In this document: piece after piece, positions 7,614 to 50,398 of the stretch
How the letters are laid out: each line of letters starts with the position of its first letter
Numbering within the stretch: position 1 is the stretch's first letter
Origin: Eledone cirrhosa
Taxonomy: Eukaryota
DNA: 64,000 bases
Assembly (NCBI GenBank): GCA_964016885.1
Contig: OZ024741.1
Coordinates: 20,274,001 to 20,338,000, forward strand
Direction: 5' to 3'
The notes under the pieces: generated by a model
What the model was told of the DNA's origin: nothing
Databases searched by the model: none
Seen by the model: the letters and a program-made list of their open reading frames with translations, nothing else
Position numbers and translations under genes: made by a program

Positions 7614-7734
7614 AAGATAGTTTAAAACGTAATTCAGCTAATTGACGTATTTCAAGTTTTTTATTAAAAACGCTGGAATTTTAAGTGCGTCACCTGTGTG
7701 TGTATGTGGTGAGTGTGTGTGTCTGGTGTGAGTG

Positions 7735-8812
7735 TTAAATATTTTGGCGCTAGTTTTAACTGTGCATTTATAAACTATGTTTTTGTCTAAACAATTATTT
7801 TGTAAAGGGCAGTTTGATTTGATTCTACAGTTACAATTATTAGAGTTATTGTTGTTCAGAACGGTACCATTATTCTGAGTATTGTTGTTAGAAATATTAT
7901 TATTGCTATTTTGGTTAGTTTGGTTAGGGTTTAAATTTAAGTTTCTATTATTAATTCTATTTATATTTTGTGCTATGTTCATAGTATAGTAGTAGAGTAG
8001 GATAGTTTTATAGTGTGTCTGTTAAAAATAGAGTGGTATCTATGGGTTTTAGGAAAACATTTATCTAGTGCTTTAAAGAATAGCTTTGCTAAAGGTGTTT
8101 TAACGCTTAATTAGAATGGGGGAGAGTACCAAATAATATTTCTAGTTCTAGTTTTTTTGTTTGGTTTAGTGTCTAAGTTAATACTTGGATGATATATTAT
8201 GTTATTGTTATCTATGTATTTAATTCTATTTGAGTATCCTGCTGTATGTAAAACTTCATTATAATATTCAGCCTTATCAAAAATATTTTTATTAGCGGAG
8301 ATGCGTGAAATCCTTTGTTGGACGCTATTGACAATAGTGTTTTTAATACTTCTAGGATGATTAGAATTGAAACTTACATAATTTAAATGTTCGTTAATTT
8401 TATGGAAAGGATAGTAAAGATCTGTGCTAAGGTTTAAAGTTACATCTAATAAGTTAACGATTTTGTAGTTATTCCCTATTTCTAACTTAAGATTGTAGTT
8501 GTTGAAAAATTGTATTATGGATTTTCTTTTCCTATTAATATCACTATTGTTATGGTTTTCAGTTAAAAGCAACATATCGTCACGATATAAACCTCCAGTC
8601 ATCTCTGGCATTTTCCTATGCAGTACATTATTAATAAATAATCCAACCAGGTCTGTAAGTTGCGCCGAGTCAGATGATCCCATAGTGATATCAAAATTGT
8701 TTTTTCTGTCGGCTCTTGTCCAGAGATGATTATTAAATTCTATTAGTGTTTTACGTGCTGTTAGAATTATATTCATTTCGTCACTAGATAAGTCTGAATG
8801 TTTAGATGCGTA
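7735..8812 (-). mobile_element. Penelope-like retroelement fragment (RT core/thumb + start of GIY-YIG), probably Naiad-like
   Basis: ORF 8111-8839 has FDITMGSSDSAQLTDLVG, GGLYRDD, LLDVTLNL and NIIWYSPPF. ORF 7638-7982 has CNCRIKSNCPLQNNCL...IVYKCTV. Stops and frameshifts are present. Clade assignment is from motif recall. Confidence 0.88.
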
Positions 8813-8870
8813 TTTTATCTGATGATAGCGTACCAACATTTTTGGTACCCTTGAAATATATATAATAGAA
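8811..8870 (+). ncRNA. Type I hammerhead ribozyme motif in an inverted pLTR at the 5' truncation of the PLE
   Basis: TATTTTAT-CTGATGA-(GTACCAA...TTGGTAC stem II)-GAAA-TATATATA-ATAGAAAA. Confidence 0.78.
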
Positions 8871-9008
8871 AAAATATGGTTTTATAAATATAGTTTCTAT
8901 TTATTTAATATCATTGTATATTATACTCCAGAAAACTTGTTGAGTGCTCTGAATCAGTTATAAACATTTATATTTGTTGAATTACCAACAAATTGAATAT
9001 CCCTTCTG

Positions 9009-12550: not shown

Positions 12551-13535
12551 TTAGGGAGAAGTGTTTAGACGGGGTCCGTATTTGTTAATAAAGTAAGATT
12601 CCTTGCTGATGCGCTGGGTGTGGGTGGCATTATCTTTAAATTTGTAGAGGGGAAAGATTCTGAAGTCGGGATGATTTGGGGCGGCACAGGTATCAATGTG
12701 TTCACTCAGTGGTATTTTCCTGTATTCCCGTATTTTAATTTGGGATCTATGGACAGTCATGCGTTGGCGGAGGCTGTTTTGGGTCTGGCCTATGCATTGT
12801 TCTCGACAACCTGAGCAAGTTAATACATATATTAGATTTTCTGATGCACATGTGAAATTGTGTTTTACTATAAAACGTTGTCCTTTGAAATAGAATTCCG
12901 AACCCTCTATTAGGTTGATGCAAATGCCACAGTTGGGTCTATCGTATTTTTTTACTGTGGGTTTTGTTGTTGTGGTTGGCAATACTTTGGCATGTGTTAG
13001 GATGTTTTTCATTGACTTAGATTGTCTTTTGCTGTTTATGATATCGTGTATTCGTAGGATTTGGTTCATTCTATGGTCCTTTTTCAACATAGGGATGTTC
13101 TGGAGAATGGTGTCAAAGGCCTCATTGGTGAAGGGGTTGTGTGTGGAGATGTATGGAAGAGCTTTTAGTTTCGGTTGATTTACTTTAGGGTGTCTAAGGT
13201 CCTGGGTACTGAGTTTTAGGGCACGTTGGATTCCATTGTCAATTAGTGATGCAGGGTAGTCCCTGCCTATGAGTGTGTCCTTTAGTTCTTGTAGCCGTAA
13301 GTAGCAGGTGTTTTTATTGGAGACTATAGTACAGATTCTCTTGACTAAGTTGTAGGGAATATTAATTTTAACGTGTCTAGGGAGGCAAGAGTTGAAAGGA
13401 AGATATTGCTTGGAGTCTGTGGGCTTGTAGTATATGTCTGTTTCTATTTTTTTGTTATGGATCTTAATGAGGATGTCGAGGAAGGGGAGTTGTTGATGGC
13501 TGTATTCCATCGTGAAGTTAATATTCGTGTTGAGC
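12551..13535 (-). mobile_element. Penelope-like element 3' half (RT thumb + GIY-YIG endonuclease), Neptune-like
   Basis: 319-aa ORF with LPFLDILI, TDIYYKPTD, NLIYVLTCSGCREQCIGQT, LRQRMTVHR and ESYFINKY. Confidence 0.9.
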
Positions 13536-13906
13536 CCATTTATAAGGGTGTGAAATTCTACCGACCAATCAAAATTGTTTTGACCACAAGAAATTTTGCA
13601 ACACGAATTGGCGCAAAACTTATTTTAATACCGCTGGAGCCACTTTTTTAACATAAAAACAGGTAGAATTCCCAAAACTAATCAGATCAGAGCAAACATC
13701 ACGGACGCTCTATCTCAAAATTATTTTTGAAAAGCATTAGAAATGCGCAACCGGTAAAACTTAAAACCAAAACTTAATACTAACCAATACTATTACTAAT
13801 TCTCACTTATTCGTAATTAAACTATTTTTCACTGTGAATAATTTGTCAGCATTTTCTATTCCGTTTACCAATATATCATAACTTGTGTGTTACACCTCTA
13901 TTCTTT

Positions 13907-13984
<78 letters not shown>

Positions 13985-13988
<4 letters not shown>

Positions 13989-14041
13989 GTAAGTATGTAT
14001 GTATACGTACATACATATATGTATACAGACGTACAGTAGCA

Positions 14042-14093
<52 letters not shown>

Positions 14094-14637
14094 TACATAC
14101 AGGTACACATACATATATGCACGCATCAGTTTAGCGGACGCTTATTATAACGCCGCTTTGTTCGTTTGTAAACAAACTGAACAGCCTGAATTTATGCCAT
14201 ACGGTGTTAAGGCAACCACGTCACCTTTTTGTTCAACACTGACACAGGAACGATGTACTAGTTTCAAGCTTGTTAGCTATCATCAGCACCGTTTACCCAT
14301 CTGCCAGATAGTTGAACGTTCGAAAGTATATACTTTCCTTATGAAAATTAACGGCTGAGCAGCCTAATTTGCATATTGAGTGAGTTAAATCGGTCAGACA
14401 TACCGAAAACGATAAGTTGAAAAAAAATGAAAACGAAATTTCATTTCTCACTCTTTGTATGGCACTTACTTAAATGTAAGTATGTATGTATACGTACATA
14501 CATATATGTATACAGACGTACAGTAGCATATACATAGTCTGTATACATATATGTATGTACGTATACAAACATACTTACATTTAAGTAAGTGCCATACAAA
14601 GAGTGAGAAATGAAATTTCGTTTTCATTTTTTTTCAA

Positions 14638-14640
<3 letters not shown>
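13985..14640 (-). mobile_element. Non-coding HHR-bearing tandem unit (~487 bp, 1.1 copies) with inverted 5' segment; retrozyme-like
   Basis: AAATGTAAGTATG... recurs at 13985 and 14472. 14536-14640 is the inverse of 14415-14520. HHR at 14249-14293. Confidence 0.75.
14249..14293 (-). ncRNA. Minimal type I hammerhead ribozyme
   Basis: AACGGUG-CUGAUGA-UAGCU AACA AGCUU-GAAAC-UA-GUA-CAUCGUU. Stem I pairs and stem III is palindromic (ACUAGU). Confidence 0.85.
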
Positions 14641-14704
<64 letters not shown>

Positions 14705-18292: not shown

Positions 18293-21200
18293 GTTTTCTT
18301 TATTAACCACAAGGGTTCACATAAAGTAGACATTAAGGACAGTACAGGACAATACAGGACGGTACAAATGGGCATTTCTGCGTGTAAAAAAACAGAGGTT
18401 GAAATAAAATAACAAAGAAAAATTCCCCAATAGGGGGGAGACTTCCAAGGGACATTTGTGGAGAAAGCCCATTAAAAGACCACAGTGGCCCTGACCACCA
18501 GGGCAAGTGCCCTCTCCCAGTTTTCCACCTTTAATTTACAGACACATACTCAGAGAAGGCCCATTCATTCGGGCCATACTTGCTTCTCTCACCCATCTTT
18601 CAACAAAATGCTGGGAAGAGAGCACTTCCCTCTCTACCCTGATTTTCCGTTTCAAATGAAATTTGAAAAAGTTAATCAGGGCATCACCGAAGAGGTAAGT
18701 GCTCGTCTTCAGCCCTTTCAAACGTGTCCACCATACTATCTCTTTCGCTATGGCCACCAGACAGATAAAAACTGCCTGCCCTTCCAGGCTAAAGGAAGGG
18801 GGCGGGGCAATCCTCACGATGGACTCAGCTGATAGCTGGATCCGTCCTACACGTGACAGCAGGTGTTCGACATAAACCCACAAGTCAGCAATGCTCGGAC
18901 ACTGGACGAGTGCGTGCAGGATGGTTTCGTCGCCCTGCGCGCATCTCGGACATGCCCGGCTGACGGCACCTCCATGCCTGTAGAGTTTATCCCGAACTGG
19001 CAAAGCTCCTCGGTAGCACTGCCAGGCCAGGGATTTCTGGAAGTTGTCCATAGGCCCCGGCCCGAAAGTCCTTCCGAAGAGATTGGCTAGTTGATTTTCG
19101 TCGACGCCTAGAGTTTCTCCAAGTACGTCGTCGCTCTTCCCCTCCACTAATCCCCTATAGAACGCCAAGGTGGAGTTTCCACCGATCACATTGCCCGATT
19201 GGTCGAGGGCTGTGAGCGCCTGAAGACATTCCAGTCTCCAAGCGCTCCCTCTCGGTCTTCGCTTGACCCAGGACTGCAGCTCCGTCAAGGAGACGAGCTG
19301 GGGAAAAACGTGTCTTGCAAACGGCGACCACACCTGATCACCGTCGAGGAAGAGGTGGAGATGTCGTAGCCTGAGCGCGTGTCTGCGCATCATCAGCCAC
19401 GGCATGCCCAGCCCTCCACGTAGCGGGTGTTGACAGCAGATGGACCGCCTGACCATCGGAGCGCGTCCCTTCCACAAGAAGCGAAAGAGCAAACGCTCCA
19501 GCGCAGTCAGGCGGGGCTTAGGACAAGGTACGACGGTCGGGCGGTAGTAGATGACGGATGCGATGTACGCATTCGCCACCTCCGCTCGACCTTTCAGGGA
19601 TAGCTTCCTCTCCGCCCATTTCTGGGTGAGAGAAGCCACCCTGCTCGTCACCTCGTCCCAGTTTTTGTCCGTCTGGAGGTCTGGACCGAACCAGACCCCC
19701 AGCAATTTAACCGGTCCGTCCGTCCAGCGCCCGACGACGCTGTTGGACGGCATGGACCTGCCTCTCCAGGTGCCGAGCTGCAGGCCCACTGACTTTTCCT
19801 GGTTGATCATTGCTCCTGTCACCGCTTCGTATTCTCTTAGTGTAGTGCCGATCGCCTCGATGTGTTTGGCGTTCGACACCACTACGGTGACATCGTCGGC
19901 ATATGCTGACACGGATCTTCCGCATCCTAGTTCGCGCGGGACCCCCCTCAACGTCTCCAGTTTGTGCAGTAATGGCTCGAGAGTCAATACGTACAATAGG
20001 GACGAGAGGGGACATCCTTGGCGGACCGAGCGCATGATGTTGAACGGTTCCGAAAGGTGACCGTTCACTCTCACTACAGAGCAGATGTCGCTGTGCATGG
20101 CAGCGATCCAGCCTCTGAAGACGGGCCCAAAGCCAGCCGCCCTCAGGACTGCCGCTAGGTAACGATGGTCGACCCTATCGAAGGCTTTCGACTGATCTAA
20201 ATTGATGAAAGACCCACCCGTGCCAGGTTCCCTAGCTACCCTCTCTATGATGTATCGCATGAGGTGGAGGTTGTCGTGGATGGATCTGTCGGGAATGGCG
20301 CATGTCTGTGCCTCTCCCACCAGACCACCAACGACAAGCGCCAACCTCTTTGCTAGCACCTTGGCCAAAATCTTGAACTCTGTGTTTAGCAGAGTTATGG
20401 GCCTAAAATTATCTATGTTATCCCCCTTGTTCGGATCCTTTCTCAGTAGCGCCACCGCTCCTCGGCTCACAGAGCTGGGAATTCTCCCGTTCTGTTGCCA
20501 GTTGCAGTAGACGTCCGCCAAGAGGCCTCCGAACAAGTTTGGCATTTGTACGTAAAGTTCATAGGGCAGACCATCCAAACCAGGCGATTTACCCCTTGTG
20601 CAACTAGTCATTGCATCCCGTACTTCAGCGGTTGTTATCGGCTTTTCGCAACACTCCGCCTCAGTGGCCGAAAGCCGCGACAGTCCGTCGAGGTAGACAC
20701 TAAAGTCCATCCCTCGATCCGGCCCGCCACTGCCTCCGAACAGTTGAGCGAAGTGTCGCTGAAAAGCTTCACACATTTGCCCGGGATCGAGTAGCATGCG
20801 CCCGTCGTGGTCCACCAAATACCGGATCGTGGCTTTGTTGCCACGACGCGCCTCCGCCACTCGGGCCCATTGAACGGCTTTCGTCCCCTCGTGTCTGAGA
20901 GCACGCACCCTAGCTCTGACAACGCAACCTTCGTGCTTTGCATTGAAGAATTGGTCAAGGGCCAATTTCGCCGCAAGTACGTCGGTCGCGATGCCTTTGC
21001 TAAGCGCCTCATCTAATTTTCTAACTAATTCTCCCTCTGCTCTATTTTTCTCTATTGCTAAAGTCTTACTAAACCTAATGGACTCTATTCTAATTGCTCT
21101 TTTCAGAGCAAACCACCACTTGTTGTTGACGATGGCCCCCGTCAACGCCCGCTTAACTAGTTCGCTAATCCGGTCTCTGTAGGCCTTGCGCGCTGGTAAG

Positions 21201-22106
21201 GACGCGTTTAACTTCCAGTAGCCGGGTCCTCGTCTATGAAGCCTATCTAAGTCAAGCACACAGATCACGAATTTGTGGTCCGTGTAGCTTACTATCTTGA
21301 ATTGTGGACAGCCTATGCTAGACCTATCTATTTCCCTACAAAATACTCTATCTAGATATGATCTGGATGACCCTATGCGGTTTGTCCAAGTCCACATTGG
21401 CACATTCGGGAAATCCAATCGGTACCTGTCAGACAGTTCAATACGCCTGAGCAGGTTGGTGAGGCTCTTGCACCCTCCACCCCTATCCGCTAATCCCACA
21501 CAGTCCCAGCGTGCATCTAAGATCCCGTTCCAGTCGCCCACTAACACTAAAGAGCGCGACGTTCCAAGAAAGGTCTCCAGACGCCGGAAGAAATCAGGCC
21601 GCCCTGCTCCTGTCGGGGCATAGACGGCCACTAGCCTGAAAGCTTGCCCGTCTCCGCTGGTCACGTCCAGCACCACCAGCTTACCCTCTGGGTCCAGGAA
21701 GATGGCCCGTATGGCGAGATCCAAACCTCTCCGAAAAAGCACAGCAACTCCTCCACCGGATCCAGGACGGCTGGGAGATGCGTACACATCGTAGCCGCCG
21801 AAGATCGGTACGAAGGCCCGTGCTTCGGAGATTCTGGTCTCGCTGATGGCCACTACATCTATGTTTAGTGACCTGAGGTCGTTGAGCAGGTGACCCTGCT
21901 TCCATGACGACCCCAAGCCACGCGCATTTATGCTGCCTATTCTGAGTGAGGTCATGTTTAAAATAGAGTGGAAAAGATGGGAAAGACCACTTACCGTACT
22001 TTTGGTAGAGGAGGGATGGTTTTTACATCCCTTTTCACTTGATCGTCTGGTGAAGGGACCGTTGAATCGTCCCTTCGGCTGGTCGTCGGCTCTTCTAAGA
22101 GAATGT
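18293..22106 (-). mobile_element. 5'-truncated L1/Tx1-type LINE with 17-bp TSD
   Basis: TSD ATAACGACAACAACAAT at 18276-18292 and 22107-22123. The 3'UTR ends ...GTGGTTAATAAAGAAAAC. A probable ORF1 C-terminal remnant stops at 21991. Confidence 0.92.
18536..21955 (-). CDS. Intact LINE ORF2 (~1139 aa): AP endonuclease, reverse transcriptase, C-terminal Cys/His zinc knuckle
   Basis: Starts MTSLRIGSINARGL. Motifs: ISET, VGDWN, SYLDR, TDH, KSPGLDG, FRPITLLN, KAFDRV, RQGCPLS, AYADD, CPRC..ETILHAL..C. No internal stops. Confidence 0.93.
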   Translation of the reverse strand: MTSLRIGSINARGLGSSWKQGHLLNDLRSLNIDVVAISETRISEARAFVPIFGGYDVYASPSRPGSGGGVAVLFRRGLDLAIRAIFLDPEGKLVVLDVTSGDGQAFRLVAVYAPTGAGRPDFFRRLETFLGTSRSLVLVGDWNGILDARWDCVGLADRGGGCKSLTNLLRRIELSDRYRLDFPNVPMWTWTNRIGSSRSYLDRVFCREIDRSSIGCPQFKIVSYTDHKFVICVLDLDRLHRRGPGYWKLNASLPARKAYRDRISELVKRALTGAIVNNKWWFALKRAIRIESIRFSKTLAIEKNRAEGELVRKLDEALSKGIATDVLAAKLALDQFFNAKHEGCVVRARVRALRHEGTKAVQWARVAEARRGNKATIRYLVDHDGRMLLDPGQMCEAFQRHFAQLFGGSGGPDRGMDFSVYLDGLSRLSATEAECCEKPITTAEVRDAMTSCTRGKSPGLDGLPYELYVQMPNLFGGLLADVYCNWQQNGRIPSSVSRGAVALLRKDPNKGDNIDNFRPITLLNTEFKILAKVLAKRLALVVGGLVGEAQTCAIPDRSIHDNLHLMRYIIERVAREPGTGGSFINLDQSKAFDRVDHRYLAAVLRAAGFGPVFRGWIAAMHSDICSVVRVNGHLSEPFNIMRSVRQGCPLSSLLYVLTLEPLLHKLETLRGVPRELGCGRSVSAYADDVTVVVSNAKHIEAIGTTLREYEAVTGAMINQEKSVGLQLGTWRGRSMPSNSVVGRWTDGPVKLLGVWFGPDLQTDKNWDEVTSRVASLTQKWAERKLSLKGRAEVANAYIASVIYYRPTVVPCPKPRLTALERLLFRFLWKGRAPMVRRSICCQHPLRGGLGMPWLMMRRHALRLRHLHLFLDGDQVWSPFARHVFPQLVSLTELQSWVKRRPRGSAWRLECLQALTALDQSGNVIGGNSTLAFYRGLVEGKSDDVLGETLGVDENQLANLFGRTFGPGPMDNFQKSLAWQCYRGALPVRDKLYRHGGAVSRACPRCAQGDETILHALVQCPSIADLWVYVEHLLSRVGRIQLSAESIVRIAPPPSFSLEGQAVFICLVAIAKEIVWWTRLKGLKTSTYLFGDALINFFKFHLKRKIRVEREVLSSQHFVERWVREASMARMNGPSLSMCL

Positions 22107-22178
22107 ATAACGACAACAACAATAATAATAAATACATATATATATATACACACACACACATAAACATATCTACACACA

Positions 22179-22239
<61 letters not shown>

Positions 22240-22240
<1 letters not shown>

Positions 22241-22645
22241 ATAGCAACTAACAGCGCTGCGATCGAATGTGGCTTTTTAGCCCAGCCAATGATTTAAAAT
22301 GTCTTGCACAGAGTTGGCAACCAAAACATTCACTGGGAATAGTCGGCTGTGGTTGGAGTTCGTGTACTTTTGCATGTCGTTTGAGCCCTCCTGCTGATTT
22401 ACATTCTCTACCACATGTTTGGCAAGCATGATGAGTAGCATCTCCAACAGCAGCCTGGTAGTCAACCACTGGTCTCACTTTATGACTGCGAAGATGACTT
22501 TCGAGTCCAGCCTTGCTTAGGCAGAGTCTCGCACAGACGCTGCATGTCAGCACCATCGGAGGACTCTCGCCGTCTGGAAGTACAACAGCAATGCCCTTCC
22601 TCACATCCCGCTTTACTTTCTCGTATGCGATTCGAGATGCCTCAA
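22240..22645 (-). mobile_element. 3' end of the RTE LINE encoding three C2H2 zinc fingers
   Basis: ORF 22248-22664: CSVC..SHLRSH, CQTC..RHAKVH, CQLC..SHIRSQRC. Near-identical to 46697-47100. Confidence 0.88.
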
Positions 22646-30378: not shown

Positions 30379-30763
30379 TTCTATATTAAATATATATCAA
30401 CTGAATACTAACCCATACAATCACTAATACTCTTTTATTCCTAATTAAACCATTTTTCAACTGTGAACAATTTGTCAGCATTTTCTATTCCGTTTACCAA
30501 TATATATATATATATATATATATATAGTATTAATTATACTATTTATGGTTATGTAAATACAAAAACCTTTTGCAGTTATATGTATTTTTTTATACAAAAA
30601 TGTTTTGAACAGTTCTTTGATTCTTATATTTCATATATATATATATATAAGTTGTAATAAAATGAAAACGAAATTTCATTTCTCACTCTTAGTACAGCAC
30701 TTACTTAAATGTAAGTATGTATGTATACGTACATACATATATGTATACAGACGTACAGTAGCA

Positions 30764-30819
<56 letters not shown>

Positions 30820-30824
<5 letters not shown>

Positions 30825-32358
30825 TCAGGTTATCAATAATGTATAAATCACATAGGAGTAGAAATAGCACAGAATCACCACCATACATACACTACCGCAA
30901 TAGACACAATAATAGTCGCACACCACCAAACAGAAGGCGATGTAAGGAGTATATTTGGTACAACCCGGTCTATAACAACTCTATTAAAACCAATCTACCC
31001 TCACAATTCTTTCGATTAATTACAAAACACTTTCCAACATCACATAAATATAATAAAATCTTAAACCCTAACACTATTCGACTTTCATATTCAACCGCCC
31101 CTAATATTGAACAACATATAAAAAAGCTTAACGCAAAACGGTTGTATAAACGCCTTCCAACACATAACAATACACGTAAAACATTAGCTATAACATCACA
31201 AAACAATAAACAACATCCTGTCCTACATAAGCAACCTCATCAACCCATCCATGGCAATACAACAACGCAAAATTATAATTGCAACTGTGTCCAACCAGGA
31301 ATGTGTCCGTTGAACAATCAGTGTCTTGAACGCAACATCGTATACAAATGTACTATCGAATCGGATAGACAGAAGTGGTACTATGTGGGATCTACAGCCA
31401 CCTCCTTCAAATCACGCCTTTATAGACATCGTTACTCGATAAAACATGAAAACCAGCGTTATGTAACAACACTCGCAGACAAGGCTTGGCAGCTGCGTGA
31501 AAATAACCAACAATTTCACCTAAAATGGGATATAATAGCGGCTGCCCCCCCCCCCCCCCCCCCTATTCCCATGGACAGGAATTTTGTAAATTATGTAATG
31601 TAGAATTATTTTGTATTATGAAATCCAAAAACATTTTATTAAATAACAGAATAGAGCGATCGTTATACTGTAAACATCGCTTAAAATCTACATTTTCATA
31701 TTATAAATACTACCAGGATTGAACGCCTGTCTCTATCCCCGTTTGATTGTCAAAATAGATATTAACATTCTTTATTAGTCTTAATTCTATCAACTCTTCT
31801 ATTATTTACCTTTTAATACAAACTGCTATAGATAAAATGAGATTTCTGATTTCTTGATTCAATTCCCTAGTGCATATACCAGCTGGCTACTAGCATTGAT
31901 GTTATTTAGTAGCAATCGAAATCTCCCCCTTCCCCAATTGACACTTTATAATTAATACTACTGCACCAAATGACCAGCCCTGTCCACTGTCCAGTTGGTC
32001 AAGTAGAGATTAAAATTGGCACTCCCAAAATTCTTATTTAGATTTACTCATGGTATTCTCATTAGAAACCCATTATATACTTGTTTAGCAGTAAATTAAT
32101 TTACCATCTGTCATATACTATCCCCTCTGTTTCTTCCTCTATTACTAATATAAATACTTCAATTTTTCTGATTTTATCCAATTTATCCAAATTCTCTGAA
32201 GAAGTGACAACTGATTATACATTTGCTATCGAATACTTGCTAACATTATATAATTACGCAAGCAGCGATACATAGGTATTCCGTCTGTTACAGAAACATA
32301 TGTCAATACCTAATAAATTCCTTTTTTAAAAAAAGCACTTTCATTTTATATTCATCCT

Positions 32359-32360
<2 letters not shown>
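30820..32360 (+). mobile_element. 5'-truncated Naiad-like PLE (linker + GIY-YIG + pLTR) inserted in (TA)n
   Basis: YIWYNP, CNC..CPLNNQCL, IVYKC..YYVGST, FKSRLYRH and CKLCNVE, with a frameshift in the poly-C at ~31545-31563. HHR in the 3' region. Confidence 0.9.
32190..32310 (+). ncRNA. Hammerhead motif with ~90-nt stem II insertion
   Basis: CUGAAGA-AGUGACA...UGUUACA-GAAAC-AUAU-GUC. Stem I is weak. Confidence 0.65.
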
Positions 32361-32439
<79 letters not shown>

Positions 32440-33296
32440 CAGGTACACATACATATATGTACGTATCAGTTTAGCGGACGCTTATTATAACGCCCGCTTT
32501 GTTCGTTTGTAAACAAACTGAACAGCCTGAATTTATGCCGTACGGTGTTAAGGCAACCACGTCACCTTTTTGTTCAACACTGACACAGGAACGATGTACT
32601 AGTTTCAAGCTTGTTAGCTATCATCTGTGTGTGTGTGTATGTATGTGCATCTGTGTGCCCCTCTGTATGTATGTGTGTGCCTCTCTGTCTGTATGTGTCT
32701 GTGCCTCTCTGTGTGTATGTGTGTGTGCTTCTCTGTATGTATGTGTATGTGCCGCTCTGTCTATGTGTCTGTGCCTGTGTGTGTGCCTCTCTGTATGTAT
32801 GTGTGTGTGTGTACCTCTCTGTATGTGTGTGTGTGTGTGTCTCTATGTATGTGTCTCTCTGCCTCTCTGTATGTATGTGTGTGTGCCCTTCTGTATATGT
32901 ATGTGTGTGTGTGTACCTCTCTGTATGTATGTGTGTGTGCCCTTCTGTATGTATGTGTATATATGTGCCTCTCTAACTGTACCTCTGCCTCTCTGTATGT
33001 GTGTGTATATATGTGCCTCTCTGACTGTACCTCTGTATGTATGTGTGTGTACCTGGTCCCAGTTCAACCCAGTGCCGCAGTTTAAGTGGATGACATCAAA
33101 GAAATGAGTTTCATTGATGAAACGTTTACGTCTTTAGTTATATCAAATGAAAAATCGAAAACCAATTGAGTAATCGATACGGTTGTTTAACGTAGCCATT
33201 TCATTAAATTGCAGACAGTGTTTATATTGTAAGATATAAGTTACTGCAGTTTTACTGTCCAATGCAGCATGCACTAATTGTTCACGAGTTCGATTC

Positions 33297-34655: not shown

Positions 34656-34679
34656 GTGTGTGTGTGTGTAAAAGGTAAA

Positions 34680-34800
34680 TAAATAAAGTAAACGTCACAA
34701 TACATTGAAGAAATATATTAGTTTAACGCTTGAAATAGCAGGAAAAGAGGCTTAATGTTTCGGACACTAGTCCTTTATCAGATGATTGAGTTAGAAATAG
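34680..34800 (-). ncRNA. Solo PLE pLTR fragment with minimal hammerhead-like motif
   Basis: CUGAUAA-A GGAC UAGU GUCC-GAAACAUUA, homologous to 49381-49500. Confidence 0.6.
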
Positions 34801-34896
34801 AAGATAGAATAGAATGATAAAGAGTGAGAAGAGAAGAGAGAGGAAGGAACGGGGAAAAAGGAGAATAAAGGGAAAAGGCACATGCGTATTCAGTCA

Positions 34897-37532: not shown

Positions 37533-37569
37533 TACAGTATTTTCCGTTGTGTTGTAATATAAATATTAC

Positions 37570-40005
37570 ACACAGTAGATTATCGTAAAGATAGACCCTC
37601 TAACTTTGACATAACAATGGGCTCTAACGATTCGGCGGAAATAACTGATATTGTGGGGTTATTTATCGCCTTTAGACTCCAGGAAAAATTCAGCAATCTC
37701 CACGGCGGAATATACCGCGGCGATGTTCTCCTCCTAGCTAAAAACCTTAATAACCAAAAACTAGAAAAACTACGCAAAGATATAAGAAAACTACTACTCG
37801 AAATAGGACTAACTATAACATATGAATACAACCTTAAAGTAGTTAACTTCCTGGATGTCACACTCAATTTAAACTCTGGTTTGATTAAACCGTTTCATAA
37901 ATTGAATGAAAATCTCAAATACGTAAATGTTGGGTCTAACCACCCCATCTCTATAATTAAATCTATCCCTAAAAATATTTCCCTTAGAATCTCGGGTCTA
38001 TCTTCTAACATACAAGTATTTAAGGAACACGCCGAGTACTACGATAACGCCCTTAGTAAAGCAGGCTACCTCAACAAAATAGAGTACATAGATGGGAACA
38101 ATCAAAACACCCAAAATAAATCCCACATAGGTAGATATAATAACACAACACCAAACCACACTTACTACCATAGTATGCACACCAGTAAACCAACAAACAA
38201 AACTAATAGAAAGCGATGCAAAGAGTACTTATGGTATAACCCCGAATACAATAGTTCCATTAGTACAAATTTACCAGTACTCTTCTTTAAAATAATTAAA
38301 AGACATTTTCCTACATCACACAAATACCACAAAATCCTAAACCCTACCACTATAAGACTGTCATACTCTACAGCGTTAAACCTTGAACAACACATAAAAA
38401 AGATCAATACTAGAAGGTTAAACGAAAACACTAAAAACTTAAGTACAAAGAACACAAAAAAAAACAGTAGACAATACACTACAGAACATAAATAAACCAC
38501 ACCTAAGTTCGTCCGCAATACTACTCCAGAGAAAACCCAACGTACACAACTGTAACTGCACCTATCCTGACAACTGCCCCCTCGGCAATAACTGCCTGGA
38601 AAAAAATATTATTTATAAGTGTACCATTAAATCCGGAGGCAACGAGTGGTATTACGTGGGATCAACGGCAACATCGTTTAAATCTCGATTGTATAGGCAT
38701 TCTTACTCAATAAAACACCAGAGCCAAAGAAATGTAACAACTTTAGCAGAAAAAGCTTGGACGCTCAGGGATAGCGATCAAAAGTTTACCCTAAAATGGG
38801 AGAAATTAGCTAAAACCCAAAGCTTTTCCAGGAGCCAAAATTTCTGCAAATTGTGTAATCTTGAGATTTATTACATAATCACACACAAGAAGAAACTGCT
38901 GAATAACAGAATTGAACGAACATTATTCTGCCGTCACAGAACTAAAACCCTTTTTTCCCACTACAAGCCGAATATTACATAAAAGAGGGACATCCCCCAA
39001 CTATATAAACCTTAATCTAGTTAGAAAAATATAAAAACAATCTCTTCTCAACATATATTAATAACCTTAAATTACCACACTAATAATGGAAAGATATGCT
39101 GATGAGAATAGGTGCAAATATGCGATAATGAATGTGTCTAAAAACGTCCATAAGTATGTATATATATGTGAAAATGTATATAAATAAGTAAATATATATA
39201 TATGTTTGATGTGTATAGTTAGATGTAAGTGTATTCATGTATTAAAGTGCTTATATATATATATATATATTATATATATATATATATGTATGTATATATG
39301 TGTATATAGATGTGTATGTATGTGTATGTGTGTACACATGGACTAGAGTATGTATGTATATATGTGTGTGTCTATACGTGTGTATATAAAGATAAGTTGA
39401 GTATGAAAATGTATACACATGAGCGCGTATGTATGTACATGAATACATGTGTGTATATATATGTGTATGCATGTGTATATATATGTAAGTATGAATATGT
39501 GAATTGTGAGTATATGTATTTTGTAGAGGTGTGCAAATATATTTGTGTGTGAATGCGTGGGTGAAAGGGTACGTACACTTGAAAGAAAAATTTAAGTCTG
39601 AATATTAATTAAGTGCAAACACAAAACCAACCACGCATATCTTTACTATCTCTAATCCTTCTATAGATCTAGAAAAATAACCAATAATATATTCTATAAA
39701 AAATGTCAAAACAACAGATGGGAATCTAATTACTCACTGCCACCAAGAATTCTCACTGCTATCGAAAAACCACTCCTTCAACTATTCTTCTAACAACTTC
39801 ACCCCTCCCTCCTAATATTCTCTATAAAAACTAAATAGGTCCTCAGTAATATTATTCTGATGAAATGACAGTAAATAATAACATTGAAATATTGAATGTC
39901 TGCATAACTAAAAGTTTGTAGATAGCAGCTGTTTTAGGTTATGTAACTGTTATAGAAACACGTGTCAATAAATTCCTTTCAACTAAACTGTATCCATTCA
40001 AATCT

Positions 40006-40008
<3 letters not shown>
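37570..40008 (+). mobile_element. 5'-truncated Naiad-like PLE: RT core, GIY-YIG and pLTR with HHR
   Basis: FDITMGSNDSAEITDIVG, GGIYRGD (catalytic YRDD mutated), NFLDVTLNL, YLWYNP, YVGSTATSFKSRLYRH and CKLCNLE. Frameshifted near 38460-38540. Confidence 0.9.
39852..39971 (+). ncRNA. Type I hammerhead ribozyme with ~90-nt stem II
   Basis: UUAUU-CUGAUGA-AAUGACAG...CUGUUAUA-GAAAC-ACGU-GUC-AAUAA. Intact core and palindromic stem III. Confidence 0.82.
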
Positions 40009-40100
<92 letters not shown>

Positions 40101-40141
40101 TTCAAAATATTAACAAAAATAGACATTCGTGTGATCAAGTA

Positions 40142-40208
40142 TATTTTATTATACATATTTCAGAGGTACTGAGCTATCTTCAACAGTACGTCCTCATCAG
40201 ATAAAATA
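40142..40208 (-). ncRNA. Type I hammerhead ribozyme
   Basis: UAUUUUAU-CUGAUGA-GGACGUACUG...CAGUACCUCU-GAAA-UAUGUAUA-AUAAAAUA. Confidence 0.8.
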
Positions 40209-40325
40209 AGATGATGCATCACATACCCTGACATAGTAGATGTTTAAGATTCAGTCATGGTAGTGATTCTTTGATTTATTCATTGAACTTTGTTTAACCT
40301 TTAAATATATATATATATATGTGTG

Positions 40326-40367
<42 letters not shown>

Positions 40368-40709
40368 ACAAAGAAAGTGTGGTAAGATACCAGGTGGACC
40401 ATAACGCACCAGAGTACTCGATACTTAGGGTAGTAGAGTGGGTAATAGGAAAAGATTCAGGACCTCGACGGCTGAGCTCCGGCCGTTTCAACAGCTAGGT
40501 CCGGAGCTCAGCCGTCGGGGTCCTGAATCTTTTCATATATATATATATATATATATAAGCAAGAAAGTAAGTGTTGGTAAAATCCAGTACTTCAGTATGC
40601 GGATAGGGAGCACTCAACGAAGATATAAGTTCCGGAGTTATAATAGTGACGAAACATAAGTCAATTGCATGAACTCATAATCCTTTATTTACTGCTATAT
40701 ATATATATA

Positions 40710-41038
40710 CAATGATATTAAATAAATGGAAACTATATTTATAAAGCCATATTTATTCTATTATATATATTTCAAGGGTACCAAAACTTTGGTACGCTTT
40801 CATCAGATAAAATACAAAGTTTGATTTATAAATTTTGACATAACCAAGAAAAGATACCTTAACGGTTCAAGTTTTTCTTGGGCCGTTAAGCTATCTGTCC
40901 TTGGTTATGTCAAAATTTATAAAACAAACTTTGTATTTTATCTGATGAGGGCGTACCAAAGTTTTGGTTCCCTTGAAATATATATAATAGAATAAATACG
41001 GCTTTATAAATATAGTTTCCATTTATTTAATATCATTG
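40710..41038. repeat. ~330-bp palindrome with one hammerhead per arm (40754-40814 minus; 40934-40994 plus)
   Basis: ~160-bp inverted arms. Same family as 8811-9010. Confidence 0.88.
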
Positions 41039-43208: not shown

Positions 43209-43507
43209 TGTTATAGAAATAATCGGGCTGGATGCCCGATCGCGCAGTTAAACCACTGGGAGTGAAGAACCCCTAGCCCTTGTTAGGGCATTCTTCTAGG
43301 AGAAGGCATCTCAGGAAACTGGGTTAACTCCGATATAAAACCTGCGGCTCAGTAGTTACCGATGATGTTGATCTTTTCTTCTTTTCGGGTTATAGCTACT
43401 GTCGCTCAGAGAGTGGGATTGGCTCAGTGCACAGTCTTTCCTCACTTTAAAAATATTCGTCACGCACAGGCATTGCACGAGTGCATTAATAATTATTAAT
43501 AGTGTAC

Positions 43508-43546
<39 letters not shown>

Positions 43547-43551
43547 TATTA

Positions 43552-43583
<32 letters not shown>

Positions 43584-43594
43584 CCAATTCAGTG

Positions 43595-46500
43595 ATGTTC
43601 CAGAACAATGTAAAAGAGATAATTGGCAATTTAGGTTCTGGAACAAAAAAGAATATTGGCAATAAGGGCAGGGGCCCCAAGTTATCACAGCCTGGGCCCG
43701 CTCGTCATCGTGCCATTGTAATAGAGCCAAACAGGGCATTTAGTCTTGGCTGCTGGAACGTACGGACGCTGCTTGACAGGGATTCTTTGGAGCGTCCTGA
43801 ACGAAGGACCGCTCTTGTTGCAAAGGAGCTTCAACGTTACGATCTTGACATCGTGGCTTTATCTGAGACGAGGTTAGCTGGAGATGGTCATCTTACGGAA
43901 TTTTTGGGAGAATATACATTCTTCTGGAAAGGAAGAGATGAAGGAACCAGAAGAGAGACTGGGGTAGGATTTGCTGTTAAGACTGTACTTGTGAATAAAT
44001 TAGAAGAATTCCCAGTAGGGATTAGTGAGCGTCTTATGTCCATGAGAGTTCCGCTGGACAAGGGAAGATATGCTACCCTGGTGAGTGTGTATGCTCCAAC
44101 TATGAATTCTGTCGATGAAGAAAAACTGTCCTTTTACCATGCCTTGAAAGGTGTTCTAAGAAATATCCCTCAGGCAGACAAAGTCATCGTGCTTGGTGAC
44201 TTTAATGCTAGAGTGGGTAGGGATTTTAACACATGGAATGTAATCGGAAGGCATGGGGTGGGAAAGTGTAACAGCAATGGTATGCTCCTGCTGCAGATGT
44301 GTGAGGAGCTGGATCTGTGTGTTACCAACACCATGTTCCAACAAAAGAACAAATTCAAGACCACATGGATGCATCCTGCATCTAAGGAATGGCATCTTTT
44401 GGACTACGTCCTAGTCAGGATGCGTGACAGACAGGATGTGCAGTGTGTTCGTGTTCTTCGTGGAGCTGAGTGCTGGACGGACCACCGCCTGGTACGCTCA
44501 AAAGTGAAACTAATCACCAAACGTAAAATCCGGGCTCCTGGTGTTACCCTGCCCAAAAGATTGAATGCTGCTCGTCTTAAGGATAAAAATGTGAAGAAAT
44601 GCAGGCTGCAGATCTTGGTGAGGATTGGCCGACCCTTAAAAAGTCGGTTTATGATGTAGGCAGGCGTGTTCTGGGATTGGTGCAGAGAAAACATCGGGAC
44701 TGGTTTAATGAGAATGATGTACATATAGAAGACTTGTTGGCTGATAAGAGGCGTGCTCTGTCACGCTACTTGACGGCAAAACCACAGGAGAGGAATACGT
44801 TGCATGAGGAACTCAAGGATGTAAAATCACGTGTTAGGCGGAGTCTTTCTCAGATGAAGGATCAGTGGTGAAGTGAGAAGGCTGGTGAGATACAAACTGC
44901 GTCTGATTCCAATAACACAAAGCTGTTGTACAGTCTCTTGCGTGAGGTTTATGGACCGTCTTCTTCTCTGGTGACACCGCTTCGCAGCAAGGATGGCAAA
45001 TAACTTCTTCGTGACTCACAAGGAATTCTACGAAAGTGGAGAGAGAACACTTTGATGATCTTTTGAATCAGCCGTCTGTCGTCAGTGAAGATTTCCTCAA
45101 TCTCATTCCAGAAAGTCCTGTGAAAGTAGCTTTCGCAGAACCTCCGACGCTTGTGGAGGTTGCAGTGGCTATTTCGAAGCTGAACAGTGGAAGATCTCCA
45201 GGTATGGATGGTATACATGCTGAGCTCCTACAATATGGTGGTGAGAGACTCCTGCAACATCTTCACTCTTTGTTTGGCAGGATATGGGCTAATGAATCCG
45301 TACCTGAGGACTGGAGAGATGCAGTAATGGTGGTCTTGTACAAGGGAAAGGGTAACAGGAATGATTGTGGGAACTACAGAGGTATATCATTGCTTTCTGT
45401 CGTAGGGAAAGTTTTATGTAGGGTGCTTCTGGACCGTCTGCTGACACACATTGCAGATTGTGTTCTTCCTGAAAGTCAATCTGGTTTTCGTGCTGGACGC
45501 GGCACTACTGATATGATCTTCTCAGCTAGACAGCTCCAGGAGAAGTGCATTGAACAAGGCTTGGATCTGTATCAGGTTTTTGTCGATCTGACAAAAGCTT
45601 TCGATACTGTTAACAGAGATGCATTATGGAAGGTTCTCCAGAAACTTGGTTGCCCTGATAAGTTCCTTGCTTTAGTTAGGTCTTTCCATGACGACATGAA
45701 GGCTTGGGTTAATGTCGGAGGTAACATGTCGGAGCCTATCTCAGTAAAAAAAATGGAGTGAAACAGGGGGATATTCCAGCACCGACCCTGTTTGCCATAT
45801 ACTTTGCAATGGTTTTCTGTATTGCATTCAGGAATTGCGAGCATGGTGTTTACATCCGATATCGAACCTCAGGCAGCATATTTAACATCAGGCGCTTTGC
45901 TGCGAAGACAAAAGTATTTACATCAATCATAAGAGACCTCTTGTATGCAGATGATTGCGATCTTGTTGCGCACACAGAGTGATATGCAGCACATTTTGAA
46001 TGCATTTTCTGACGCTTGCAATGCCCTGGGTTTGACTGTCAGTCTCAAGAAAACCGTCGTCATGTACCAACCTGCCCCTGGTAAGCAGTACACTGAACCA
46101 AACATCTATGTATATGGTAAACGACTTGGAGTGGTTGATCAGTTTGTCTACCTTGACAGTGAAATCTCACTTAGGATTAGGAAAGCAAGTGATGCTTTCG
46201 GAAAGCTAGAAAGGCGACTCTGGGGTCGGCGAGACATATGCAGGAGGACAAAGGTATAGGTGTACAGGGCATGTGTGCTCTCTTGTCTTCTTTATACCTG
46301 CGAGACCTGGGTCACATATCGACACCACCTTAAGCAATTGGAGCGTTTCCATCAGATGTGTCTCAGACGGATCCATGGCGTTCACTGGAGGGACCACATC
46401 AGTGATGTCGAGATTTTGGAAAGCTCTATGTGTGACAGTATAGAAGCTCTTGTGCTTAAGCAACGACTCCGTTGGAGTGGTCACCTTGCCAGGATGAAGG

Positions 46501-47093
46501 ATTCTAGAATACCAAAACAACTCTTTTATGGAGAGTTGGTTAAAGGAAAACGACCGCCACATAAACCAAAAAAGAGGTATAAGGATTCCTTGAAAGCCTC
46601 TCTGAAAGACGCTAACATCTCTGCTGATACATGGGAAAATATTGCTGCTGATCGTAATAAATGGAGAAAGACTGTATATGAGGGAAAATTTGCCTTTGAG
46701 GCATCTCGAATCGCATACGAGAAAGTAAAGCGGGACGTGAGGAAGGGCATTGCTGTTGCACTTCCAGACGGCGAGGGTCCTGCTATGGTGCTGACATGCA
46801 GCGTCTGTGCGAGACTCTGCCTAAGCAAAGCTGGACTCGAAAGTCATCTTCGCAGTCATAAAGTAAGACCAGTGGTTGACTACTAGGCTGCTGTTGGAGA
46901 TGCTACTCATCATGCTTGCCAAACATGTGGTAGAGAATATAAATCAGCAGGAGGGCTCAAGCGACATGCAAAAGTACATGAACTCCAACCACAGCCGGCT
47001 ATTCCCAGTGAATGTTTTGGTTGCCGACTCTGTGCAAGACATTTTAGATCATCGGCTGGGCTAAAAAGCCACATTCGATCGCAGCGCTGTTAG
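43595..47093 (+). pseudogene. Near full-length RTE-clade LINE ORF (APE + RT + three C2H2 fingers), disrupted; RTE-like 5'UTR at ~43210-43490
   Basis: WNVRTL, ALSETR, SVYAPT, LGDFNARVG, LLDY, TDH, YRGISLL, QSGFR, DLTKAFD, KQG, LLYADD and RLRWSGH. Several frameshifts and stops. Confidence 0.93.
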
Positions 47094-48374: not shown

Positions 48375-48700
<326 letters not shown>

Positions 48701-48789
48701 GTTGTTATCGTTGTTGCTAAACACCCACGTTGTCTATGCCCTCCGGTGTTCCCTTTGCGGGTCCTTACACATCAGATAAACGGGTCCTT

Positions 48790-49500
48790 ATACATCAGAT
48801 AAACTGTTTTACTGACCATTTGAGGGACATGGGACTCAGTTTGGATACTCCCGTTGCCCATCATTTCCGTTCCCCTGGTCACTCTTCCCTACATGTCTCA
48901 GTCCTGGGTGTCCTTTTAAATCACGGATCACAGGCCTCGCGCACCAGGACTGAACAGAGTCTGATTTACCACCTTGGGTCCTGTTTCCCTCATGGATTCA
49001 AATCCACTCCCCAATTTCTTTAATACCCCATCTGTTATCATACATGTGCTTGTACATTCACCCCTGGATTCCAATTGCTCTCTTATAGTCAGAAACATAT
49101 ACTCTTACAGCTAATACAGACCAACAAAATACGCACACTCCCCTTTTCCCTTCACAGCTCTGTATACACACACGTGCGCACAAGTATATCTCTTTATACA
49201 AAACGGTTAGACGCGCTCCATCATCCACTTAATTTATCCACAATATATCATACACAAAACACTAGCCCCAACAGTTTTCCAAGAGATGGCAACATGAATG
49301 GACCTGTTATTTTTATCTAAAAATATTTTCTTCCAATTCCACCCGGCCCGTCCCCTCAATCTATTTTATTTCTCATTCTTTCTTCTGATGAAGGACTAGC
49401 GTTCGAAACGTTACGACCCCCTTCCTGCTATTTCAAGCGTCAACCTAATATATTCCTTCCATTCCTGTACCGATTGTGTTGTTATTTCTGTTTACCTTTT
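48790..49500 (+). mobile_element. PLE GIY-YIG C-terminal fragment + pLTR with minimal HHR (49385-49415)
   Basis: FTDHLRD..PVAHHF..GHS..RTRTEQSLIYHLGS..PHGF, then CUGAUGA-AGGAC UAGC GUUC-GAAACGUUA. Confidence 0.75.
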
Positions 49501-49524
49501 ACATACATATATATATATATAAAC

Positions 49525-49846
49525 AGAAAAAATGAAACGAAATTTCATTTCTCACTCTTAGTACGACTGTTACTTAAATATAAGTATGTATACGTACATA
49601 CATATATGTATACAGACGTACAGTAGTATATATATATACATACATGCACACATATATATATATATGTACGTATGGATTCACCGAACATTTATTATAATGC
49701 TCGGTGTGTTTGTAAACAAACATCCCGAATTAAGCCGTACAGTGTCTAGCAACCATCGTTGCTCATTTGTCCAACACTGACAAACACACCGAGCATTATA
49801 ATAAATGTTCGGTGAATCCATACGTACATATATATATGTGTGCATG

Positions 49847-49891
<45 letters not shown>

Positions 49892-50359
49892 TACTGTATG
49901 TCTGTATACATATATGTATATACGTATACATACTTATATTTAAGTAACAGCCGTACTAAGAGTGAAAAATGAAATTTCGTTTCATTTTTTTCCGTTTATC
50001 ATTTTCGGTACCCCGGCCGATTAACTCACTCGATATGCAAATTAGGCTGCTCAGCCGTTAATATGCATAAGGAAAGTATATACTTTCAGACGATCAACCA
50101 TCTGGCAGGAAGGTATACGTTGCTGACGATAGCTAATAATCTTCAAACTAGTACAGCGTTCCTTTGTCAGTGTTGAACAAAAAAAGCAACGATGGTTGCT
50201 AGACACTGTACGGCTTAATACGGGATGTTTATTTACAAATACACCGAGCATTATAATAATTGTTCGGTGAATCAATACATACATATATATGTGTGCATGT
50301 ATGTATATATATATATACTACTGTACGTCTGTATACATATATGTTTGTAAGTATACATA

Positions 50360-50365
<6 letters not shown>
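49525..50365 (+). mobile_element. Second retrozyme-like locus: ~454-bp unit x1.3 preceded by an inverted partial copy
   Basis: ACAAA.ACACCGAGCATT at 49781 and 50235. 49525-49780 is in inverted orientation. HHR at 50117-50159: ACGUUG-CUGACGA...CAAAC-UA-GUA-CAGCGU. Confidence 0.75.

Positions 50366-50398
<33 letters not shown>

Follow-up and report, generated by a model that had tools for sequence, protein, structure and literature searches.

The window analysed, a stretch of 64,000 nucleotides from the 3.0-Gb genome of Eledone cirrhosa, contains an ORF-less unit of 445–487 bp with a type I hammerhead ribozyme (HHR), which underlies two head-to-head insertions. At locus 1, a sense arm of subfamily A (13984–14556, minus strand) spans 1.18 units of 487 bp and has its 3′ end at a site designated S1 (13984), followed by (AT)n, while an inverted arm of 0.22 unit (14537–14642, plus strand) ends at a second site, S2 (14642), also followed by (AT)n. 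The arms meet near 14530–14556, where the sequence is locally palindromic, so that the exact base of the junction is not fixed. The (AT)n target microsatellite occupies 13910–13983 on the S1 side, where it is held in common with the end of an adjoining Neptune-like Penelope-type element (PLE), and 14643–14702 on the S2 side. The sense arm includes an internal copy of the S1–S2 interval, or “tail,” of ~59 nt (14412–14471, minus strand), in which a conserved hairpin precedes S2. Locus 2 consists of a sense arm of subfamily B ending at S1 (49780–50366, plus strand; 1.34 units of 445 bp) and an inverted arm of 0.63 unit ending at S2 (49519–49784, minus strand). A first-pass annotation had described both loci as slightly more than one head-to-tail copy of an ORF-less unit, with an inverted partial copy on the 5′ side, and the arm lengths bear this out; its statement that the copies start at different registers holds for the 5′ ends and fails for the 3′ ends, since at each locus the sense arm stops at S1 and the inverted arm at S2. 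Overlooked at that stage was a third copy, a subfamily A arm whose 5′ part (32385–32625, minus strand) is separated from its 3′ part (30647–30817, minus strand; ending at S2) by a Hydra-like PLE (~30820–32362, plus strand) sitting in the internal AT run of the unit. The units of loci 1 and 2 are identical at 382 of 490 alignment columns (78%), and their variants, including those of the sister family described below, range from 424 to 487 bp with a GC content of 0.34–0.36. The longest ATG-initiated ORFs in three units (119, 68, and 50 aa) lack conservation. Two LINEs also lie in the window, an open frame of 1246 codons at 18539–22276 (minus strand), which we take to be Tx1/L1-like, and a frameshifted RTE-like element at 43493–46883 (plus strand). 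In protein searches, the named match of highest identity among the top matches listed was a LINE of Octopus bimaculoides (61%), which, taken with the repeat landscape, points weakly to an octopod host.

The hammerhead motif of locus 1 (14249–14293, minus strand), with predicted cleavage after 14256 (GUA), is composed of a 7-bp helix I, CUGAUGA, a 4-bp helix II over a U.U, GAAA, and a 2-bp helix III with a palindromic loop. Among the variants, helix I measures 6–7 bp, helix II 4–5 bp, and helix III 2 bp. The min-HHR of PLEs is described as having a long helix II (7–8 bp) and a short helix I without helix III, and the canonical metazoan type I HHR as cleaving in the form of a dimer in tandem repeats (PMC4209133). 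On the basis of its helix I, short helix II, and 2-bp helix III, the Eledone motif is therefore of the canonical metazoan type I; the earlier count of one HHR per unit stands, and the label “minimal” does not. Stem I differs in sequence between the two loci with pairing kept, as had been claimed. The HHR of locus 2 (50116–50160, plus strand) has CAAAC in place of GAAAC at 50144, a G12C change that is private to this copy (G is present in 97 of 99 subfamily B segments) and predicted to inactivate it. In a set of 12 hand-picked variants that includes the ~60%-identical sister family, the HHR core is invariant, 89% of helix cells pair vs. 23–44% in slid controls, and two-sided changes are found in 7 of 14 pairs; a shuffle test on the HHR is inflated by kinship among these 12 variants. 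The isolated HHR folds no better than shuffled sequences, and folding z-scores of -6 to -13.5 were set aside because an AT hairpin inflates them. The U.U at the base of helix II may reduce ribozyme activity. In Xenopus, eight of nine dimers are reported to have failed to cleave in vitro (bioRxiv 2026.07.22.740005). An Rfam scan of the window returned no hammerhead among the 150 of 177 matches listed, all of which were microsatellite-driven miRNA matches.

Exact genome-wide searches found 24,827 matches to the HHR pattern, which is a lower bound for the number of copies, together with 23,291 matches to the tail motif and 27,147 to the cleavage junction. Reversed-pattern controls gave no match for any of the three motifs, and the HHR matches are thus not due to chance. 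A looser HHR pattern (40,675 matches vs. 30 for its control) exposed a sister retrozyme family with a unit of ~466 bp, ~60% identical to subfamily B and colinear with it along the whole unit, which has a GUU cleavage triplet, compensatory changes in helices I and II, and two end sites as in the main family. One sister-family arm containing 31 HHRs stands head to head with an arm of 0.74 lap (L329–L340; G000:C1, e.g., 5738327–5752443).

A conserved ATGCAAAT octamer block, located at approximately 14367–14374 (minus strand) in locus 1, ~110–120 nt upstream of the cleavage site, is a candidate promoter element. Of its 314 occurrences in the sampled loci, 297 are intact, and it is common to subfamilies A and B and the sister family. 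Newt satellite 2 prompted the idea of an snRNA-type promoter. This was not supported, because the octamer is absent from all seven U1/U2 upstream regions of this genome that were examined (within 300 nt), and their proximal-element profile is unmatched in the unit. The U1/U2 genes themselves (L279–L298, L341–L352) carry TCAGT at about -57 and, at about -30, a TATA-like box.

The ends of the insertions were mapped in a position-sampled set of 90 regions around the first matches listed on contig C1 (30 merged and 60 fetched), which left out about seven listed tail sites. The 3′ ends of 146 of 170 arms lie at S1 (70) or at S2 (76), about 59 nt downstream of S1; the remainder lie elsewhere (12), in the AT block (10), or at a region edge (2). 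The S2 count reflects a window widened post hoc from 283–294 to 277–294, since alignments often halt ahead of a T run; the strict window assigns 70 arms to S1 and 62 to S2, and (AT)3 or more directly follows 117 of these 132 strict ends. The 5′ ends of the position-sampled arms are scattered along the unit. A pile-up of 5′ ends at whole laps, hinted at in similarity-selected loci, is absent from the position-sampled arms (34 of 169 in bins 221–300 vs. ~30 expected), and a 5′-end cluster at 403–417 was rejected as a real register, being an artefact of picking loci via the HHR pattern. Fixed termini had been named beforehand as evidence against a circular template. It is the 3′ sites S1 and S2 that are fixed, with variable 5′ ends, and fixed 3′ termini argue for PLE machinery rather than against an RNA circle.

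The two end sites are used in combination. Both ends could be assigned in 44 of the 58 head-to-head pairs, and every one of the 44 joins an S1 end to an S2 end (all 36 under the strict S2 window). The same pairing is seen in 30 of 33 assignable pairs among similarity-selected loci, the others being two S2+S2 and one S1+S1, and in all three two-armed insertions of the sister family. In the Neptune-like PLE adjoining locus 1, whose two termini lie 41 nt from each other, the pairing is the same in 11 of 11 two-ended insertions, a tally made by eye with one three-ended locus omitted. Twin priming of L1 provides an analogue, in which a second cDNA is primed from the other target end. A known feature of PLE insertions is an inverted 5′ copy, with a tail on just one of the two ends (PMC3846280, PMC8557442), and a PLE from anole is reported to have two internal reverse transcriptase (RT) start sites, to extend both target strands, and to be a predicted dimer (PMC11167929). 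In light of the S1+S2 pairing and of these reports on inverted copies and two RT starts, the most plausible reading of the inverted segment is a second cDNA that was primed at the opposite target end. Were the endonuclease instead to trim one end (PMC8557442), as it may, an identical S1+S2 pairing would arise. The near-strict pairing is in any case a constraint on any model.

A single sequence variant usually runs through the laps and the two arms of any given insertion. Among position-sampled loci, divergence is 2.8% between laps within an arm and 2.7% between the two arms of one insertion, as compared with 7.6% between loci bearing the same subfamily label and 15% across labels. The corresponding values for subfamily A are 1.0% between laps, 1.3% between arms, and 3.9% between loci. 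In the similarity-selected set of subfamily B, where laps diverge by 3.1%, inverted arms are no closer to the partner arm (4.3%) than to other loci (4.2%). One subfamily B insertion (L067, minus strand, near 2050) has a subfamily A-like stretch at its arm junction, which suggests a switch between templates. More than one lap is present in 69 of 167 complete arms and more than two laps in 13, with a maximum of 6.4. Because of the HHR-selection bias at 403–417, the test for run-off at the cleavage site was redone on tail-selected arms. These 83 arms cross the cleavage site 64 times and stop within 5 nt of it twice, vs. 1.6 stops expected, and cleaved linear monomers are therefore not the main template. 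Counting against a circle, a junction falls exactly at the cleavage site in two similarity-selected loci (L041 and L080).

The interpretation that we prefer, at a probability of roughly 70%, is that the family is a non-LTR retrozyme copied in trans by a Penelope-type RT/endonuclease, most likely on a unit-length circular RNA. Copying by a Penelope enzyme is likely because the two-armed insertions share the Penelope end pattern, and we infer from the genomic copies a circular RNA with multiple laps round the circle, with which the features of the insertions would fit simply. The first-pass view of a non-autonomous HHR retroelement is sustained as regards its PLE hallmarks and the reading beyond one unit. 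A circular RNA copied by a PLE RT has been proposed for retrozymes (PMC7229834). In the mechanism envisaged, loci with at least two HHRs would be transcribed, adjacent HHRs would pair as a dimer via the palindromic helix III and free a monomer, and a host ligase would close it into a circle in which the single HHR would be poorly active. A PLE protein, probably a dimer, would then bind the tail region and cut both (AT)n strands, and one target end would be primed at S1 and the other at S2. Each cDNA would extend for about one lap on average, at times for several, before a random stop, and the two cDNA ends would be joined head to head; a single arm would result if just one end were extended. 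A more specific version, in which one dimeric Penelope enzyme works on one ribozyme-made circle at two staggered sites, with each strand primed separately and both active sites circling, is tentative, its odds being somewhat short of even. If true, this single-circle model would account together for three features of Penelope elements, namely the inverted pseudo-LTR, the one-end tail, and the partial tandems, and the insertions would constitute direct footprint evidence that animal retrozyme circles serve as retrotransposition templates.

The alternative that survives best retains two-site priming by a PLE and substitutes as template an uncleaved linear multimer transcribed from an existing array, with the HHR incidental or acting elsewhere and the arrays renewed through tandem expansion at the DNA level. 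Uncleaved multimers predict read-through of the cleavage site equally well and, in the in vitro experiments described in PMC11167929, were the substrate predominantly used by the PLE from anole. Homogeneous arrays do exist, long sources such as the 6.4-lap arm or the 31 HHRs of the sister family could suffice as linear templates, and the arms, at a mean of 414 nt, are mostly short. Against this, a linear RNA possesses a 5′ end, and yet 5′ ends gather only at a palindromic hairpin (unit ~72–81) and at the AT block. Source junctions and flanks would also be expected to travel, yet they are not carried to other loci: 5′ flanks are seldom common to dispersed loci, among which no junction recurs save for one palindromic point and one local duplication. 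Linear lineages, moreover, would shrink by progressive 5′ truncation, and the HHR is maintained with compensatory changes across about 40% divergence. We consider a linear template unlikely, at perhaps one chance in five.

Candidate helpers for a retrozyme mobilized in trans are found in two young PLE families that are rich in long open frames and both end in (AT)n. Their clade labels are based on motifs rather than on a tree, and a Pfam search found no family in five PLE fragments. The Neptune-like family encodes 784 aa with GLKF, DKG, and a linker zinc finger, and the Hydra-like family encodes 785 aa with RWK, DKT, and CxCX5C, marks listed for the Hydra clade in PMC8557442. A young Neptune-like element (L121, G000:C5:17087000–17096900) measures ~4.7 kb, and its RT/GIY-YIG frame of 784 aa is overlapped, in a different phase, by an upstream frame of 455 aa. 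Near-identical copies with long frames are numerous, and no canonical HHR was seen by eye in the non-coding part. The insertion adjoining locus 1 (12551–13909) is a separate element of this kind, comprising a 5′-truncated RT/GIY-YIG ORF on the minus strand (~13560–12551) and an inverted end on the plus strand with a tail (~13550–13909). Several Hydra-like families were noted (window 37563–40010, 30821–32362, and 7700–8900; L145 and L301), one of which has many identical 785-aa frames and is apparently active. One Hydra-like PLE has a tail of ~95 nt and a hammerhead-like motif with a long helix II near its end. Short Hydra-like end pieces with hammerhead-like cores lie at 40120–40300 and 40690–41030, one of them a head-to-head pair of HHR-bearing ends. 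Locus 2 has as its direct neighbour the 3′ portion of a further PLE (48700–49510), in which a small hammerhead-like core lies near 49385, and a related end is found at 34663–34802 (or 34660–34802). Another small (AT)n-flanked element (L124:7000–7230, L226:1250–1480) has a CUGAUGA...GAAAC core and a fold-back structure.

In a further alternative, the unit would itself be the pseudo-LTR or 3′ end of an unsampled autonomous PLE, its copies being 5′-truncated, partly tandem insertions of that element. In its favour, 24 of 57 Xenopus retrozyme families are tied to transposable elements, with 21 of the 22 being PLEs, in the figures given by a recent preprint (bioRxiv 2026.07.22.740005), and the PLE families examined here are few, with candidate places in the tens of thousands. 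No homology to the unit was found in the Neptune-like family (including the element adjoining locus 1), the 785-aa Hydra-like family, or a third, Hydra-like family; S2 does look similar to the Neptune-like end, yet this similarity did not rank with the top matches in a 21-kb PLE library. Near the PLE loci inspected, (AT)n or other DNA intervenes between PLE and unit matches. Four of 80 unpaired 5′ flanks, from three loci, run straight into PLE DNA, which is not the consistent abutment on a PLE ORF that an ordinary pseudo-LTR (pLTR) had been expected to show. At L226 a retrozyme arm lies head to head with a Neptune-like end; at L271 a retrozyme S1 arm runs on into a Hydra-like ORF, the far end bearing the PLE's own tail; and at L237, which accounts for two flanks, the retrozyme has inserted into a PLE ORF, accompanied by a 9-bp duplication, and was partly recopied together with that ORF. 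The joins at L226 and L271 could be mimicked by later deletions. These three direct junctions differ in PLE family and register, consecutive units follow one another within arms for as many as 6.4 laps without an intervening ORF, and the canonical HHR of the unit differs from the long-helix-II motif of Hydra-like PLE ends. The unit is not an ordinary pLTR and its derivation from an unsampled PLE is improbable, its remote pLTR ancestry being possible. Least credible of all, and largely refuted, is a DNA-level repeat (satellite, MITE, or Helitron-like) spreading without RNA. The tandem arrays, the hairpins, the microsatellite core, and the inverted segments at the termini might speak for such a repeat. 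Against it stand 3′ ends that are fixed and 5′ ends that are random, lap numbers that are not integers, an inversion point that differs in nearly every copy, an S1/S2 rule matching that of an autonomous PLE, and a covarying HHR.

Copying of a retrozyme by a Penelope enzyme, as preferred here, bears on two broader problems. One is whether retrozyme circRNAs are templates for insertions, as proposed in PMC7229834, and by which enzyme they are copied; the other is the origin of the inverted PLE ends with a tail on one side, for which three differing explanations have been offered (PMC3846280, PMC8557442, PMC11167929). With ~25,000 copies, young members, mapped starts, and intact candidate helper ORFs in one genome, both can be put to the test through counts and in vitro assays.

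On every feature that could be tested, the Eledone family behaves as a non-LTR retrozyme, with cleavage and a circRNA as predictions from its DNA. Like the metazoan non-LTR retrozymes of coral, mussel, and axolotl (PMC7229834), it consists of ORF-less tandem units with a GC content of ~35% and one canonical type I HHR per unit, is present in thousands of copies, and shares its genome with PLEs; the U.U at the base of helix II also occurs in axolotl HHR_Amex2. At 424–487 bp, its units fall at the upper end of the 150–450 bp range given there. Circular RNA and cleavage were demonstrated for those retrozymes and are predicted for the Eledone family; fixed 3′ sites, tails, inverted arms, and (AT)n targeting, in contrast, are features of the Eledone family for which no counterpart was noted in that article. 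Li, Clavereau & Pollet (bioRxiv 10.64898/2026.07.22.740005) treat the same class and propose a PLE helper, on the basis of co-occurrence and pLTR homology in vertebrates; as presented, their survey includes no mollusc and favours local tandem amplification. Their link to PLEs is pLTR homology, which was not found in Eledone, where the link consists of insertion footprints. The first-pass suggestion that the family may be undescribed must accordingly be divided, as the class (PMC7229834) and a PLE origin (bioRxiv 2026.07.22.740005) are in print and the family itself is probably a new member of that class. No report of cephalopod retrozymes or of S1/S2 pairing in retrozyme insertions was found in the open-access literature, and neither “ribozyme” nor “retrozyme” appears in the main text of PMC13282606.

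The resemblance to insertions of EN+ PLEs (PMC3846280, PMC8557442) extends to 5′ truncation, partial tandems, a head-to-head inverted copy, a one-end tail, and AT-rich targets; the Eledone family differs in lacking an ORF and in its tail of ~59 nt as opposed to 30–40. The biochemistry of anole Poseidon (PMC11167929) likewise involves two internal RT start sites, although in the in vitro reactions reported the starts are alike on both strands, whereas the two Eledone ends are almost always at different sites. The MRC1-type elements of Chlamys (PMC8557442) are comparable as non-autonomous, multicopy, head-to-tail insertions of PLE type. To these known systems the Eledone family adds a quantified footprint, consisting of coupled start sites, one variant per insertion, and read-through of the cleavage site.
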